A stretch of DNA of 64,000 bases. Origin: an uncultured Desulfurococcales archaeon (lineage in GTDB: Archaea > Thermoproteota > Thermoprotei_A > CAZTBM01 > SZUA-1508). The notes under the pieces were generated by a model that saw only the letters and a program-made list of their open reading frames with translations, had not been told where the DNA came from and did no database searches. Shown here one piece after another: positions 23,906 through 42,321 of this stretch. The position numbers and the translations under genes were made by a program. Location of the stretch: NCBI GenBank assembly GCA_964611985.1, contig CAZTBM010000008.1:3008-67007 (forward strand). The letters are read 5' to 3'. The stretch's first letter is position 1. The number at the start of each line of letters is the position of its first letter.

Positions 23906-24439
23906 TTAACACTGTTTTTCAAGTAGTAACTCTAAATAAGATTTAAGTATACTTGGACCCTTTACTCTAAGTTCTTTAGCTACCTTTTTTAATTTGTTGA
24001 TCACCTCTTGTAAATATTGTTGACTAACAGGTTTGATGTATTCTATTTCAACAAATATGCCTAGATCTCTCACTTTGTCTATGGATACTTTGAAGTCGCC
24101 AAGTAAGTAGATGCTTCTCTTTTTAATCACTGTTGCGATTCGTCTAAATCCTAATCTTATAAGTATCATATCTAACTTTTCAAAATGTGAAACATCTACT
24201 GAGATTTCTTCTCTAGCCTTTGCCTTATCTGAAACTCTAGGACCCTTATATGTTAGCTCACATTTGCTATCATATACTCTTACTCTCAAGGCTTCATCTG
24301 ATTCCTTAAAGTTTTTACAGGGATGCTGATAATAGTGATCATATTCAATGACGGTCTTTAAGTACTTGGCACCTAAGGCATTAAGTCTCTTCTTTATTTT
24401 AGCGTCATCATCTACTTTGAATTTAACCTCTACTTCCAC
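23906..24439 (-). CDS. cyaB: CYTH domain protein (class IV adenylate cyclase, CyaB-like)
   Basis: EVEVKF (ExExK), DHYY, LRVR, LTYKGP, AREEI, KKR, FVEIE, SYLELL. Confidence 0.88.
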   Translation of the reverse strand: MEVEVKFKVDDDAKIKKRLNALGAKYLKTVIEYDHYYQHPCKNFKESDEALRVRVYDSKCELTYKGPRVSDKAKAREEISVDVSHFEKLDMILIRLGFRRIATVIKKRSIYLLGDFKVSIDKVRDLGIFVEIEYIKPVSQQYLQEVINKLKKVAKELRVKGPSILKSYLELLLEKQC

Positions 24440-24456
24440 GAAGAAAAATACACCTC

Positions 24457-25713
24457 TTAAGGGGTTAATATATCAGGTGTTCTGGGATATAGTGCGGCTT
24501 CATGTATTTTCTCTAACTTGAGCAGTGTCTGCATTAACCTCTCTACTCCTAGACCGAATCCACCATGCGGTGGGAAGCCGTACCTAAACATGTCCAAATA
24601 CCAATCGAAGGATGCTGGGTTTAGTCCTTTATCTCTCATTCTTTTCTCTAACTTTACTGGATCATGTTCTCTTAGTCCACCACTTGACCATTCAACACCA
24701 TATTCTCCAGGACCATAGAAGTCTATTCTATGTGCTAGTCTAGGATCCTCGTCCATGACCTTATAGTAGAAAGCTACCTCTTTTTCAGGGAACTCTGTAA
24801 CGAAGAAGGGTGCGTCAAATTCCATACACAACGCTCTTTCTTCATCAGCTCCAAAGTCCATACCCCATTCTATACTGACCCCTTTATTTTTAAGTATCAT
24901 TATAGCTTCATCATAGTGTATTTTATGATAGTAATCTGGAACTTCAACTTTTACGCCAAGGGTATTCAAATCTTCAGCATTATTTTCATTTACTTTTTCG
25001 TAAATGTATTTTACAAGTCCAAATTGTAATTGCATTAGCCTATCTTTTGTTGTTAATGCCTCCTCTACATCTATCTGCCAGAATTCTGTTAAGTGCTTCC
25101 TTGTTCGAGACTTTTCAGCTCTAAACGATGGGCCTATAGTAAAGACTTTACCAAAAGCTGGTATTGCTGATTGCTTATAGAGCTGTCCACTTTGTGCCAA
25201 GTATGCTGTTCTATTGAAATATTTTACTTGGAATAGTTCTGCCCCACCCTCACTAGCACTACCTATAATTATTGGTAATTGTAATTCAACAAATCCTCTT
25301 TTAACTAGAAATTCTCTAGCTGTCTGAACGACTGTTGCTCTTACTCTAAATATAGCTTTTACCTTAGGTCTTCTTATATCAAGGTATCTAAATCGTATTC
25401 TTGTTGGGAATTCAGCTATAACTTTCTCAGATAAATCTATGGGTAAAGGCTTTGATGTCGCTATTATATCGATTTCCTCAGGTATAATTTCGTATCCCAG
25501 TTTAGCTATTTTACTTTGAACCTTTGTACCCCTAACTTTGATGAAGTATTCAGGTCCTAAACTAGTGAATACTTCCCATACTCTATCAGGGACTTTACCT
25601 TTCTTAATAACTACTTGTTCAATGCCAGTGAAGGTTCTTAAGATAATGAATCTAACTTTCCCTAAATCCCTCAAGAACATTATATGACCATATACTTCTA
25701 TTTCACTCTCCAT
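24457..25713 (-). CDS. class IIb Asp/Asn-tRNA ligase with mosaic AspRS/AsnRS signatures
   Basis: OB-fold anticodon domain, motif 2 FRAEKSRTRKHLTEF, motif 3 PPHGGFGLGVER; specificity residues discussed under findings. Confidence 0.9.
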   Translation of the reverse strand: MESEIEVYGHIMFLRDLGKVRFIILRTFTGIEQVVIKKGKVPDRVWEVFTSLGPEYFIKVRGTKVQSKIAKLGYEIIPEEIDIIATSKPLPIDLSEKVIAEFPTRIRFRYLDIRRPKVKAIFRVRATVVQTAREFLVKRGFVELQLPIIIGSASEGGAELFQVKYFNRTAYLAQSGQLYKQSAIPAFGKVFTIGPSFRAEKSRTRKHLTEFWQIDVEEALTTKDRLMQLQFGLVKYIYEKVNENNAEDLNTLGVKVEVPDYYHKIHYDEAIMILKNKGVSIEWGMDFGADEERALCMEFDAPFFVTEFPEKEVAFYYKVMDEDPRLAHRIDFYGPGEYGVEWSSGGLREHDPVKLEKRMRDKGLNPASFDWYLDMFRYGFPPHGGFGLGVERLMQTLLKLEKIHEAALYPRTPDILTP

Positions 25714-37784: not shown

Positions 37785-38084
37785 ATGGAGATTAAGATAG
37801 ATAGAGAACTAGTAGTAAGACTAGCATGGTTAACAAGGTTGAAAATTACAGAAAAAGAGGCAAAGAAACTAATCGAAGACTTCAAGAGAATAATAGAATT
37901 CTTTAACAAGATAGATGAGTTAAGAGAAGTGATTAAGGAAACTGAACCATTGTATCATGTATTGGAGTTAAGTACAGTAGTTAGATCAGATAAGCCGAAA
38001 ACGCCACTATCAAGAGAGGAGATATTGTCCATAGCGCCTGAGTCTGAGGAGGGCTTCATCAAAGCTCCATGGAGGGCTAGATGA
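37785..38084 (+). CDS. gatC: Asp/Glu-tRNA amidotransferase subunit C
   Basis: LAWLTRL, VVRSD and EGFIKAP motifs; immediately upstream of gatA. Confidence 0.85.
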   Translation: MEIKIDRELVVRLAWLTRLKITEKEAKKLIEDFKRIIEFFNKIDELREVIKETEPLYHVLELSTVVRSDKPKTPLSREEILSIAPESEEGFIKAPWRAR

Positions 38085-38088
38085 AGAC

Positions 38089-39564
38089 ATGAAGAATCTT
38101 CTAAACATGCCAGCATACAAGGTTGTTGAGCTAATAAGGGAAGGCTCAATTAGCATAGTCGACTATATATCAAAAATTATAGAGAGAATAAATAAATATA
38201 ATAATACCATTAATGCTTACATCACATTAACTCCTGAATTAGCATTAAAAAGAGCTGAGACGCTTGAAAAGAAATTGAAAAGAGGAGAGAAATGTGGAAA
38301 ACTGATTGGACTCCCAGTAGCTGTTAAAGATAACATCTCGACTAAGGGGATTGAAACTACCTGTGCTTCACGTATATTAAAAGGTTATAAACCACCGTTT
38401 AATGCGACGGTGATAGATAGGATACTAGCCGAGGATGCTATAATAATAGGAAAGACCAACATGGACGAGTTTGCTATGGGTTCAACAACAGAGACAAGTG
38501 CTTACGGTCCAACAAGGAACCCGTGGAACATAAACCATGTTCCTGGAGGATCTTCTGGCGGGAGTGCTACAGCACTCGCAGCTGGAATGGCACCCTTAGC
38601 ATTAGGTAGTGATACTGGAGGTTCAATAAGATGTCCAGCTGCATACACGGCTACATGCGGATTAAAGACAACTTATGGTCTTGTAAGTAGATATGGGTTA
38701 ATACCTTATGCTAATAGTCTTGAACAGATAGGACCTATGGCCAGAAATGTAAGAGATATTGCACTCTTACTCTCCGTAATAGCTGGTCATGACCCTAAGG
38801 ATTCAACCTCTCTCAATATACCATCTCATGATTACTACTCTAATATTCAACCTGTAGAGCCTCGAGGTATGAAAATCGCTATAATAAAGGAGATGACTTA
38901 CGAAGGTGTTGATGAAAGGATAGTTAAAGCACTTCATAAGATTGTAGAGAGGCTGGATTCTGAAGGTGCAGTAGTTGATGAGGTAAGTGTACCAATTATA
39001 CCATACACCTTACCAGCATACTATATTATAGCTATGGCTGAGGCCTCATCAAACTTAGCAAGATATGATGGCACGAGATATGGGCTTACCATACGCTATG
39101 GTTCATGGGATGAATCGGTTATGGAAACACGAGCTAAGGGTTTCGGTACGGAGGTCAAAAGGAGAATAATGCTTGGGTCTTTTGTTCTCTCAGCTGGATA
39201 TAGAGAACATTACTACATTAAAGCTTTGAAAATTAGGCGTTTAATTAGAGATGAGTTCCTTAGAATATTTAAGAAATATGATATAGCATTATCCCCCACA
39301 ATGCCTATACCACCACCAAGAATAGGTGAGAGAATAAAAGATCCTCTACAACTATATGCTATGGATATCGAGACAGTCCCTATAAATCTTGCTGGAATAC
39401 CGGCACTTAATATACCACTATCATTCATTGATGGATTACCAGTAGGATTACAAATAATGGGACCTCCCTTAAGTGAAGAAAAACTTCTCTCTATAGGCTT
39501 ACTCTTTGAGGAAATAGTAGGTATAAAGGACATGGTTGCAGAGGTGCAAAGTAAGTATGGATAA
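38089..39564 (+). CDS. gatA: Asp/Glu-tRNA amidotransferase subunit A
   Basis: AVKDNI, GKTNMDEFAMGS, PGGSSGGS, GSDTGGSIRCPA, SNLARYDG, EVKRRIMLG. Confidence 0.96.
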   Translation: MKNLLNMPAYKVVELIREGSISIVDYISKIIERINKYNNTINAYITLTPELALKRAETLEKKLKRGEKCGKLIGLPVAVKDNISTKGIETTCASRILKGYKPPFNATVIDRILAEDAIIIGKTNMDEFAMGSTTETSAYGPTRNPWNINHVPGGSSGGSATALAAGMAPLALGSDTGGSIRCPAAYTATCGLKTTYGLVSRYGLIPYANSLEQIGPMARNVRDIALLLSVIAGHDPKDSTSLNIPSHDYYSNIQPVEPRGMKIAIIKEMTYEGVDERIVKALHKIVERLDSEGAVVDEVSVPIIPYTLPAYYIIAMAEASSNLARYDGTRYGLTIRYGSWDESVMETRAKGFGTEVKRRIMLGSFVLSAGYREHYYIKALKIRRLIRDEFLRIFKKYDIALSPTMPIPPPRIGERIKDPLQLYAMDIETVPINLAGIPALNIPLSFIDGLPVGLQIMGPPLSEEKLLSIGLLFEEIVGIKDMVAEVQSKYG

Positions 39565-41002
39565 GGATATAGATGTTAAGATAGGACTTGAAATACACGT
39601 TCAAATAACGTCCCTTAAGACTAAATTATTCTGCTCTTGTCCAACAGATTACCGTGGTAAACCTGCAAACATTAACGTTTGTCCCGTCTGTTTAGGCCTA
39701 CCTGGAGCTTTACCTGTAGTTAATGAGGGAGCTCTTAAGAAAGCTATTATGACGGCTTTAGCATTAAATTGTAAAGTAAATCCTGTTGTAATTTTCAGTA
39801 GAAAACATTACTTCTATCCTGATTTACCCAAAAACTACCAAATAACACAATATGCTGGTGCAGGAGCTCCGATAGGAACAAACGGCTACATAGATATACA
39901 CTATGAGGGAAAAACTAAGCGTATTAGAATTAGAAGGTTACATTTAGAAGAAGACCCTGGTAGACTTGTTTATCCCGGCAAGAGCATAGTCTCAAGCCCT
40001 CATGTTCTAATCGATTATAACAGATCAGGTATAGCACTCCTAGAGATAGTAACCGAGCCGGACATGACATCACCTCGTGAAGCAAGATTACTACTAGACA
40101 AATTGAGAGCAATACTCGAGTATCTTGAGGTTTCCGATTTAACATTAGAAGGGGCTATGAGAGTTGATGCTAACATATCTATCACTGGTGGTGAAAGAGT
40201 AGAAATTAAGAACATAGGCTCAATAAGTGATGTTGAAAAGGCATTAACATATGAGGTTGTTAGACAACGTGAGATACTACGTAGAGGCGGAGAGGTAAAA
40301 CGTGAAACGAGACATTGGGATTCACTTAGAGGAGTAACTGTAACTCTTAGAGAGAAAGAGGAAGAGGAGGACTATAGATACTTTCCAGATCCTGATCTTC
40401 CACCAATAGTTGTGTCAGAGGATCTTGTAGAGAAGATAAAGCTAGCACTACCCGAATTACCTGACCAGAAAGCTGAAAGATTCATGAAGCAATACTCACT
40501 ATCAAAGCCTATAGCACATACGCTTGTGCTCTATAAGAAACTAGCAGATTTCTTTGAAGAGGCAGTAAAAATTCATTATAATCCTAAGAGAATAGCTACA
40601 ATATTAATAACAGATTATCTCAGTTGCCTAAAGAAACACGGCTTAAAAGTGGGTGAAGACAAAGCAACACCGGAGAAAATAGCCAAACTGGTTAAAATGG
40701 TTGATAAAGGAGTTATAAGCGTTAATGTGGCCAAGGATTTAACATTCAGAGTAATACTAGAAGGAATAGACCCAGAGAATGAAGTTAAAAAGCTCGGATT
40801 AACACGAATAGAGGATACAGAGTACCTAATGAGGATCGTAAGGGAAGTGCTAGCAGAATATCCAAAAGCTGTGGAAGACGCCAAAAAGAATCCTAAGGTA
40901 ATAAACTTCCTAATAGGGATGACTATGAAAAAGAGTAGAGGAAGGTTAGATCCAAAGAAGGCTCGTGAAGCTATAATTAAAGAGTTAAAATTAAAGGTGT
41001 AG
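39557..41002 (+). CDS. gatB: Asp/Glu-tRNA amidotransferase subunit B
   Basis: IGLEIHVQ, CPVCLGLPGALP, RKHYFYPDLPKNYQITQ, HLEEDPG, DYNRSG, DYRYFPDPDL. Confidence 0.96.
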   Translation: MDKDIDVKIGLEIHVQITSLKTKLFCSCPTDYRGKPANINVCPVCLGLPGALPVVNEGALKKAIMTALALNCKVNPVVIFSRKHYFYPDLPKNYQITQYAGAGAPIGTNGYIDIHYEGKTKRIRIRRLHLEEDPGRLVYPGKSIVSSPHVLIDYNRSGIALLEIVTEPDMTSPREARLLLDKLRAILEYLEVSDLTLEGAMRVDANISITGGERVEIKNIGSISDVEKALTYEVVRQREILRRGGEVKRETRHWDSLRGVTVTLREKEEEEDYRYFPDPDLPPIVVSEDLVEKIKLALPELPDQKAERFMKQYSLSKPIAHTLVLYKKLADFFEEAVKIHYNPKRIATILITDYLSCLKKHGLKVGEDKATPEKIAKLVKMVDKGVISVNVAKDLTFRVILEGIDPENEVKKLGLTRIEDTEYLMRIVREVLAEYPKAVEDAKKNPKVINFLIGMTMKKSRGRLDPKKAREAIIKELKLKV

Positions 41003-41007
41003 GGGCA

Positions 41008-42321
41008 ATGACTCTTAGATCACACTATGTCAAGGAAGTATTCAAATTAGACACTCCTTCAGAAGTGAAACTTGCAGGATGGATATATAGGATTAGAGAC
41101 TTAGGGGGAGTAAAGTTTCTACTCTTAAGAGATAAAACTGGTATTATACAAATTGTGGTAAAGAAAGATAAGGCACCTAAAGCATATGATGTAGCCGAAA
41201 CACTAACAGAAGAATCAATAGTAGTGGTGGAAGGTCTAACTAGAAAAGATGAAAGAGCTCCAGGCGGTATTGAAGTATTAGCATCAAATATAACGGTATT
41301 GAATAGAGCACAAAAACCCTTACCACTTAGTTTAAATAGAGACATGAATAATTTAGGTAAAAGACTAGACTGGAGATTTTTAGACCTAAGAAATAATCTC
41401 ACTCAACTAATATTCATTGTTAAGAGTGAAGTAGCTAATGCAATAAGGGAATACTTTAGATCAAAAGGGTTCATAGAGATTTTTACATCAAAAATTGTTG
41501 CTCAAGCAACTGAAGGAGGGGCAAACGTCTTTCCATTAGTATACTTCGGTAAAGAAGCATTTCTTGCCCAAAGCCCACAATTATATAAACAATTGATGAT
41601 GGCTACAGGAGTAGATAAAGTATTTGAAATAGGACCAGTATTTAGGGCAGAGAAGCATCACACAATAAGGCATCTATGTGAATATCATTCAGTAGACTAT
41701 GAAATGGCATTCATAGAGGATTACAATGAAGTAATGGATATAGCTGAAGGGCTGGTGAGGCACGTCATAAGGAAATTAGAAAAAGAAATGGGCTCAGAGA
41801 TTGAAGAAAAATTTGGTCCACTACCTTCAATTCCTAAGAGTGTACCAAGAATAACGATTAAAGAGGCTTATAGAACACTTAGAAGCATGGGAAGAGACAT
41901 CAAAGAGGGCGATGATTTAAGTAGTGATGAAGAAGAATTATTAGCTAACTTTATTAAGAAAGAGTATGGATCAGATCTTTTCTTCATTACAGAGTATCCA
42001 TGGAAGATTAGACCATTCTACACTATGAAGAAACTTGATGACCCTCAATACACATATAGCTTTGACTTAATACTTAGGGGACTAGAAATAGCAACAGGTG
42101 GTCAGAGAGAACACCGTTATGAAGTATTGGTGAAACAAATTAAGGAGAAGGGGCTGAATCCTCTGAGCTTTAGGTTTTACACTGAATACTTTAAGTATGG
42201 TATGCCTCCTCATGGTGGTGCTGGCTTAGGCTTAGAGAGATTAGTAATGAAGCTGCTAAGTTTAAAGAACATTAGGGAAGCAAGGCTTACACCCAGAGAC
42301 CCGGAAAGGCTCTTCCCTTAA
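41008..42321 (+). CDS. aspS: archaeal aspartate--tRNA ligase, non-discriminating type
   Basis: [39 protein letters not shown]; anticodon loop RAPGG contains the Pro typical of ND-AspRS. Confidence 0.92.

Follow-up and report, generated by a model that had tools for sequence, protein, structure and literature searches.

Asparaginyl-tRNA synthetase (AsnRS) is accepted as a derivative of the archaeal-type aspartyl-tRNA synthetase (AspRS), and we know of no characterised extant Asp-specific enzyme from near the branch point of the two families. Recognition of the aspartate side chain is taken here to depend on Lys198, Asp233 and the Arg of the GGxRxH box (Thermococcus kodakarensis/Escherichia coli numbering), and Feng et al. 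2003 are said to have found that the substitutions K85P and W26H open the T. kodakarensis AspRS to tRNA(Asn). In Thermus and Deinococcus, a discriminating AspRS1 and a non-discriminating (ND) AspRS2 of archaeal type occur together with the amidotransferase GatCAB and AsnRS, with neither AsnA nor AsnB (PMC4206432). Enzymes of the AsnA type are known offshoots of the same region of the AspRS/AsnRS tree (PMC9437257). We analysed a stretch of 64,000 nt (hereafter the window; contig CAZTBM010000008.1, positions 3,008 to 67,007 of the forward strand, assembly GCA_964611985.1) from an uncultured Desulfurococcales archaeon, and in particular a gene at 24457-25713 (minus strand; hereafter the target) encoding a class IIb aminoacyl-tRNA synthetase of 418 aa, a divergent AspRS. 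The target is probably a functional, housekeeping, tRNA(Asp)-specific discriminating AspRS of a deep-branching lineage, working beside an ND-AspRS/GatCAB pathway and AsnRS; Asp activation, charging of tRNA(Asp) and, in particular, the exclusion of tRNA(Asn) are properties that we infer from sequence and gene content.

A divergent AspRS with an aspartate-type pocket

The initial annotation had described long AsnRS-like stretches combined with an AspRS-type pocket and anticodon-domain loop, and all of the strings it quoted (PSFRAEKSRTRKHLTEFW, HYDEAIMILKNKGVSIEWGMDFGADEERALCMEFDAPFFV, DPR, AALYPRTP, QLYKQ, IDVE, SSGGLREH and SKIAKLGYEI) were found in the 418-aa open reading frame (ORF). The reference motifs that it gave agreed with the real sequences in alignment: Pyrococcus horikoshii AsnRS (1X54) has RAPGG, QLYLEA, LELE, GGSQRED and AALFPRTP, and T. 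kodakarensis AspRS (3NEL, 1B8A) has KAKLGFEI, QLYKQ, IDSE and SSGGQREH. K180 of the target (in QLYKQ, 25174-25176, minus strand, as are all features of this gene) corresponds to AspRS Lys198, where AsnRS has Leu, Glu or Ala; D215 (in IDVE, 25069-25071) corresponds to AspRS Asp233, where AsnRS has Glu; and R348 (24670-24672) lies in SSGGLREH, an AspRS-type SSGGxREH box in the place of the AsnRS box GGSxRED. All three presumed Asp side-chain recognition residues therefore align with their AspRS counterparts. In the L1 loop SKIAKLGYEI (residues 67-76, 25486-25515), K71 stands in the column of K85 in the discriminating T. kodakarensis AspRS, a column in which RAPGG has its Pro.

An alignment of 15 diverse members of the clade to which the target belongs showed invariance of Q177-L178-Y179-K180-Q181, F197-W212 (FRAEKSRTRKHLTEFW), D215 and E217, of S343-S344-G345-G346 and R348-E349, and of P147, R198/E200 and motif 3 (G384-R392). 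The same motifs were found again across the clade's ~55 database clusters.

Scores against curated family models were consistent with the pocket. Both NCBIfam AspRS cut-offs were passed (NF003483, 422.5 bits, cut-off 353; TIGR00458, 386.1 bits, cut-off 368.4), by models whose scope is archaeal-type AspRS as a whole and which give no measure of tRNA discrimination, while both asnS cut-offs were missed (NF003037, 330.2 bits, cut-off 414; TIGR00457, 287.7 bits, cut-off 342.6). The overall score was thus nearer to AspRS (422 vs 330 bits), and the AsnA model NF005052 gave 202.6 bits, far under its cut-off of 368. Taken together, score cut-offs, domain layout and pocket residues place the protein among the archaeal/eukaryal-type AspRSs (class IIb). 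It falls outside asnS by its scores, by K180 and D215 instead of non-Lys and Glu, and by SSGGLREH instead of GGSxRED; it falls outside the archaeal asparagine synthetase A (AS-AR) proteins by the presence of an OB domain and by the missed AsnA cut-off.

The ORF runs uninterrupted from ATG to TAA. An N-terminal OB-fold anticodon-binding domain (residues 1-104, 25402-25713; PF01336 over residues 7-84) is followed by a class II catalytic domain (residues 105-418, 24460-25401; PF00152 over residues 104-412, 265 bits), with no GAD insertion recognised by Pfam, and motif 1 (P147), motif 2 (R198...E200, H207, E210) and motif 3 are intact. The AF2 model (predicted local distance difference test, pLDDT, 80.9) matched archaeal AspRS and AsnRS structures (3NEL, 1WYD, 1X54) in Foldseek with template modelling (TM) scores of 0.83-0.85; this match confirms a complete two-domain fold and, being equally good for both families, does not tell them apart. 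Compared with the ortholog of a genus-mate (G001, 86% identity), non-synonymous divergence (dN) was 0.09 and synonymous divergence (dS) ~2.2, and the target is under strong purifying selection. Pseudogene status was rejected on the curated model scores and the dN of 0.09 vs a dS of 2.2.

A second AspRS encoded with GatCAB

The host genome (G000; 1.65 Mb, 56 contigs) is a 90% complete metagenome-assembled genome (MAG) with three members of the AspRS/AsnRS family: the target, a classical AspRS and a canonical AsnRS. The two AspRSs had been anticipated in the initial annotation, one of them as an ND enzyme acting with GatCAB, and the second is indeed a classical RAPGG-loop enzyme physically linked to gatCAB. 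The canonical AsnRS, which had not been foreseen, although a check for one had been proposed, is encoded elsewhere (L002, contig C2) and scored 527 bits (cut-off 414).

Within the window, gatC (37785-38084; TIGR00135, 76.2 bits, cut-off 47.1), gatA (38089-39564; TIGR00132, 608.7 bits, cut-off 481.1), gatB (39536-41002; NF004012, 605 bits; TIGR00133, 544 bits) and the classical archaeal AspRS gene, aspS (41008-42321; NF003483, 584.7 bits), form a compact operon on the plus strand (37785-42321), of which aspS is the last gene. The end of gatA and the start of gatB share 29 nt, a gap of 5 nt separates gatB from aspS, and all three Gat subunits exceed curated cut-offs. The classical enzyme carries the motifs DERAPGG, QLYKQ, VDYE and GGQREH and, by its RAPGG loop, is putatively non-discriminating. 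A profile scan combined with the family census of this genome revealed no AsnB above the cut-off and no AsnA-like paralog; because neither was found, tRNA-dependent transamidation by gatCAB-aspS is plausibly the sole route to Asn in this organism.

Only 31-36 tRNA genes were recovered from the genome, almost all with introns, among them tRNA-Asn(GTT) at C41:11612-11704. Whole-genome searches with ARAGORN and RF00005 did not recover tRNAs for Asp, His, Ile, Met and Trp. The ARAGORN predictions of a 'tRNA-SeC' (C10:11248-11343) and a 'tRNA-Pyl' (C41) are probably intron artefacts.

The clade as sole AspRS in most host genomes

A search of 5.8 billion proteins returned ~55 clusters of the clade (clustering at 90% identity) that were 50-97% identical to the target, followed by a gap to sequences of ≤46% identity; clustering at 50% reduced the clade to one representative. 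Hosts were MAGs of Desulfurococcales, Korarchaeota (one fragment), Diapherotrites/Iainarchaeum and Micrarchaeota. Subclade A, which includes the target, comprised 36 sequences from Thermoproteota plus the Korarchaeota fragment and has G-H at positions 9-10. Subclade B comprised 19 DPANN sequences with GWV(W/Y) and, at position 71, Pro in ten and otherwise K, R or A. Through subclade B (P0035-P0052, P0055; L032-L038) one AspRS lineage is common to MAGs of hydrothermal Thermoproteota and of DPANN (Iainarchaeum, Micrarchaeota); this sharing, with a patchy distribution in the host class (11 of 106 genera), suggests horizontal transfer between these groups.

The census covered 351 genomes of the host class, with all hosts being MAGs. 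Twenty of them carried the clade (11 of 106 genera, in six families), with a patchy distribution within families f3 and f5. A classical AspRS was absent in 15 of these 20 genomes, leaving the clade enzyme as the sole AspRS, and GatB was absent in 14 of the 15, where only GatE-like matches were obtained; six of these genomes were 95-100% complete. By their motifs (QLYLE, LExE, GGSxRED), nine of the second paralogs in clade-bearing genomes are of the AsnRS type. The other second paralogs were full-length, with identities to the query proteins in the same range, except in four incomplete MAGs, where the second paralog was missing or fragmentary. The target is 65-74% identical to the orthologs that serve as sole AspRS elsewhere.

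The classical AspRS was present in just five of the 20 genomes (three genera), each time directly downstream of gatB, and gatA preceded gatB-aspS in all three genomes where it was searched for. The association of classical AspRS with GatB across the 20 class genomes was significant (Fisher p = 0.0004). Besides the target's own genome, those with adjacent gatB and aspS are G001, G135, G366 and G367/G048, and an AspRS gene lies beside gatB in the DPANN genome G057. The census amounts to a natural experiment: given a clade enzyme and an AsnRS, the classical AspRS persists only when linked to gatCAB, and this linked survival supports the persistence of ND-AspRS/GatCAB as an asparagine-biosynthesis module.

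Two sets of unusual proteins were also noted. In G042 (C10:21145-23709), a catalytic-domain-only AspRS/AsnRS paralog (362-aa frame, AsnA-like) sits beside an ORF similar to the C-terminal half of AsnB, with similar short paralogs in G049/G097 and G044/G195; G042 lacks GatCAB, and its protein may synthesise Asn independently of tRNA. Database proteins of 880-960 aa in which GatB (GatB_N and YqeY domains) is fused to a full AspRS in one polypeptide (P0122, P0127, P0137, P0142, P0198, P0221) look like a covalent transamidosome. The P0122 fusion comes from Baldrarchaeia (Asgard) MAGs and is annotated solely as aspartate--tRNA(Asn) ligase; no description of a GatB-AspRS fusion was found in the literature.

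Specificity for tRNA(Asp) and the non-discriminating alternative

With AsnRS present and the amidotransferase absent, any Asp-tRNA(Asn) made by a subclade-A enzyme would go uncorrected, and for this reason subclade A is taken to be discriminating. The residues at the two T. kodakarensis positions agree with this: position 71 in the 36 subclade-A sequences is K in 25, R in ten and G in one, with no Pro, a residue that occupies the loop column in 61 of 79 AsnRS-type sequences, and position 12, the equivalent of W26, is never His. Neither a K85P-like nor a W26H-like marker thus occurs in subclade A, in which W24 of the T. kodakarensis enzyme is replaced by His in 34 of 36 sequences. The tRNA(Asp)-specific role put forward in the initial annotation is therefore the one that appears to fit best, considering the sole-AspRS status in 15 of 20 genomes, the lack of GatB in 14 of these 15 and the lack of Pro/His markers in all 36 sequences.

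According to the reading that we favour, the target would form aspartyl-adenylate, with the Asp carboxylate held by K180 and R348 and with D215 and E217 placed as in AspRS, and would then transfer Asp to tRNA(Asp), the OB domain reading the GUC anticodon and the basic L1-loop residue K71 standing in for T. kodakarensis K85. The RAPGG-loop AspRS of the operon would make Asp-tRNA(Asn) for GatCAB, that is, for tRNA-dependent Asn synthesis, and the canonical AsnRS would charge and reuse free Asn. There may be a strict division of labour, with the target confined to tRNA(Asp) and tRNA(Asn) left to the enzyme of the operon. In most genomes having the gene, the clade enzyme would have replaced the classical AspRS, beside AsnRS and without an amidotransferase.

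Several observations weigh against this reading. No tRNA-Asp gene was found in the whole 90% complete MAG, either by ARAGORN with and without introns or by Rfam RF00005. The absences counted in the census are probabilistic, since all hosts are MAGs. One class genome (G109; 84% complete, contamination 4%), which has a clade AspRS and an AsnRS-type paralog, encodes a divergent GatB (G109:C9:20931-22349; 358 bits, above the cut-off) without a classical AspRS, and contamination, a missing aspS or a clade enzyme feeding GatCAB could each account for it. The K85/W26 rule, attributed to Feng et al. 2003, derives from a single enzyme; position 12 is variable within subclade A, and the K85 part is broken within the clade itself, where subclade-B members whose residue 71 is Lys (G053, G055) occur in genomes with GatB and without AsnRS. 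Lys at the loop position is unsafe as a sole marker because Lys-bearing DPANN members sit in such genomes. Finally, being a third and redundant synthetase, the enzyme could have acquired a different function within the genus.

The best-surviving alternative, which we nevertheless consider unlikely, is that the target is a non-discriminating AspRS, as implied by its NCBI name 'aspartate--tRNA(Asn) ligase'. Subclade B makes this conceivable. Its proteins are the only family members in the DPANN genomes, and GatB was found in four of these (G051, G053, G054, G055; not in G050 or G056), so a non-discriminating enzyme is within the range of the lineage. Some of the proteins concerned have Lys in the loop column. 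The target also passed NCBIfam models named for the ND enzyme, but these recognise archaeal-type AspRS generally and are blind to discrimination. For subclade A the genomic setting is different: no GatB accompanied the enzyme in 14 of the 20 class genomes, most of which have an AsnRS-type paralog, so that Asp-tRNA(Asn) would be unrepairable; the Pro and His markers are missing; and in the target's own genome GatCAB is linked to the other AspRS.

Database names follow this alternative for the most part. Clade members are named 'aspartate--tRNA(Asn) ligase' or 'nondiscriminating aspartyl-tRNA synthetase' in their source records, apart from one 'aspartyl-tRNA synthetase' and one (JGI) 'asparaginyl-tRNA synthetase'. 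The forecast in the initial annotation that automated pipelines would call the target asnS mostly did not hold, given that NCBI uses aspartate--tRNA(Asn) ligase and only the single JGI record says asparaginyl-tRNA synthetase. The prevailing label probably misstates tRNA specificity and would then mislead reconstructions of Asn-tRNA metabolism in these MAGs.

Phylogenetic position and the question of a recombinant origin

Trees were built with FastTree (259 rows) and IQ-TREE (72 rows, LG+C20+F+G4 PMSF). The clade was monophyletic (100/100). One split separated AsnRS, three 'K...E' proteins and P0223 from the clade and 33 AspRSs (99/95), which puts the clade outside AsnRS, and another separated the 33 other AspRSs from the clade and the rest (96/94), which puts it outside classical archaeal AspRS. 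The clade thus joins the backbone at a point with classical archaeal/eukaryal AspRS on one side and AsnRS on the other, and nesting inside a characterised AspRS clade, a possibility raised in the initial annotation, was not seen: the target belongs to a separate lineage.

With seven class II LysRS sequences as the outgroup, the root fell between classical AspRS and a group made of the clade, the K...E group and AsnRS (93/81). A sister relationship of the clade to AsnRS plus the K...E group is accordingly preferred without being firmly established, since the branch to the outgroup is long and LysRS as a true outgroup is disputed in published work (PMC8821087). Approximately unbiased (AU) tests rejected neither clade+AsnRS (p = 0.36) nor, under LG+G4, clade+classical AspRS (p = 0.27). 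The outgroup included class II LysRS-like ORFs of ~494-505 aa (L133, L134, L137, L138, from G042, G046, G045 and G047) encoded in Desulfurococcales-type MAGs; class I LysRS is usual in archaea.

The K...E group (P0070; P0138, in the cluster of P0270 from a Heimdallarchaeota MAG; P0185) consists of full-length proteins, made up of an OB and a class II domain, that keep Lys at K198 but have Glu in place of D233 (QFYKQ ... IE.E). It branches between the target clade and AsnRS (99/94) and may be a second intermediate. That the clade and the K...E group are surviving stem lineages of the AspRS-to-AsnRS transition, with the clade as the closest extant Asp-specific relative of AsnRS, is a tentative proposal that we regard as somewhat doubtful. 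If true, the clade keeps an AsnRS-like core from before the pocket switch, and the origin of asparagine coding would be directly testable on these proteins.

The extent of AsnRS-like sequence was estimated by per-column BLOSUM comparison with 30 AsnRS-type and 103 AspRS-type representatives, negative scores being AspRS-like. The target scored -90, two AspRS controls ~ -300 and two AsnRS controls ~ +300. Its OB domain (-63) was AspRS-like, clearly so over the N-terminal 120 residues, and its catalytic domain was near neutral (-27) and patchy, with residues 181-220 (motif 2) and 261-300 leaning towards AsnRS. The motif-2 sequence RAEKSRTRRHL is not exclusive to AsnRS, because several ordinary or basal AspRS-type proteins carry it (P0056, P0057, P0059, P0123).

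A recombinant origin, in which a Thermococcales-like discriminating-AspRS anticodon domain was joined to an AsnRS-lineage core that kept or regained Asp specificity, concerns where the protein came from and is compatible with an AspRS function; we judge it improbable. Separate domain trees, which had been proposed in the initial annotation, did place the two parts differently: the OB domain grouped with T. kodakarensis AspRS, P0121 and P0070 (Shimodaira-Hasegawa-like approximate likelihood ratio test, SH-aLRT, 97), and the catalytic domain stood beside AsnRS plus the K...E group (SH-aLRT 77). The segment scores also differ between the domains. The OB tree, however, has ~100 columns, is otherwise so poorly resolved that AspRS and AsnRS are not even separated, and its grouping may reflect convergence of the loop. 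The catalytic domain is neutral and patchy rather than AsnRS-like (-27 vs ~ +300), other basal AspRSs (P0056, P0057, P0123) have similar partial AsnRS-like features, and whole-protein trees gave one coherent intermediate position. The terms 'AsnRS scaffold' and 'mosaic' in the initial annotation were therefore too strong, with the AspRS score higher than the AsnRS score, the similarity graded and RAEKSRTRRHL present in basal AspRSs. The target is better viewed as an apparently graded evolutionary intermediate, recombination being neither demonstrated nor refuted.

Remaining alternatives

A redundant paralog with a non-translational or altered role, such as tRNA-independent Asp activation, AsnA-like Asn synthesis or charging of another acceptor, is very improbable. 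Three enzymes of this family are unusual in a 1.65-Mb genome, no AsnA or AsnB was found in it, and AsnA-type offshoots of the same tree region are known (PMC9437257), yet the target keeps its OB domain, hinge and all tRNA-acceptor motifs, is 65-74% identical to sole-AspRS orthologs, evolves under strong purifying selection and reaches 203 bits with AsnA models vs a cut-off of 368. Mislabelling of an AsnRS as AspRS can practically be dismissed: P. horikoshii AsnRS is the best single PDB match (phmmer, 316 bits, against 312 bits for the 3NEL AspRS), motif 2 and residues 261-300 are AsnRS-like and one JGI record is so named, but both asnS cut-offs were missed, Lys and Asp stand where AsnRS has Leu/Glu/Ala and Glu, the target lies outside the AsnRS clade (99/95), and a canonical AsnRS is encoded separately in all of the well-sampled host genomes.

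The genes around the target provided no operon clue. The gene that starts 18 nt downstream on the same strand (23906-24439, minus strand) encodes a class IV adenylate cyclase/CYTH protein (TIGR00318, 145 bits), and the CyaB/CYTH, YfcE and NadE neighbours are kept in the genus-mate only and in none of 13 other loci.

Comparison with known systems

Neither archaea with two AspRSs nor the target clade were found described in full-text literature searches, which agrees with the remark in the initial annotation that such a split was not known to it from archaea. What appears to be new is a deep-branching AspRS lineage and, by analogy, an archaeal equivalent of the dual-AspRS system that is known from Deinococcus-Thermus bacteria. 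The clade has an AspRS pocket on a core that already has AsnRS-like motif 2 and insertion-domain sequence and, together with the K...E group, which has one of the two pocket switches, forms a natural series for the evolution of Asp-to-Asn specificity.

Among characterised enzymes, the discriminating AspRS of T. kodakarensis (1B8A, 3NEL) resembles the target in having an OB domain and class II core without GAD (~40% identity, TM 0.83), in its pocket (QLYKQ, IDxE, SSGGxREH), in the C-terminal ...LTP, in Lys at the K85 position (KAKLGFEI vs IAKLGYEI) and in the presence of AsnRS in the same cell. The target differs from it by belonging to a separate clade, by His in place of W24, by a variable W26 position, by GGLREH vs GGQREH and by the resemblance of motif 2 and residues 261-300 to AsnRS. 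With P. horikoshii AsnRS (1X54) the target shares 41% identity, a nearly identical motif 2 (FRAEKSRTRrHLTEFW), the YDEAI...GADEER...PFFV stretch and AAL(Y/F)PRTP; unlike that enzyme, it has an AspRS-type pocket and no RAPGG loop, misses the asnS cut-offs and lies outside the AsnRS clade. The archaeal AS-AR proteins (1NNH, 3P8T) are likewise offshoots of the AspRS/AsnRS stem that bind Asp on an AsnRS-like core, but they have no anticodon-binding domain, whereas the target keeps it.

At the level of the whole system, the closest parallel is with Thermus thermophilus and Deinococcus radiodurans, where the component list and the logic are the same, function in our archaeon being read from the genes. 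The host here is an archaeon and both of its AspRSs are of archaeal type; the presumed discriminating enzyme belongs to a novel lineage and is not a bacterial GAD-containing AspRS, and the putative ND enzyme is encoded within the gatCAB operon.

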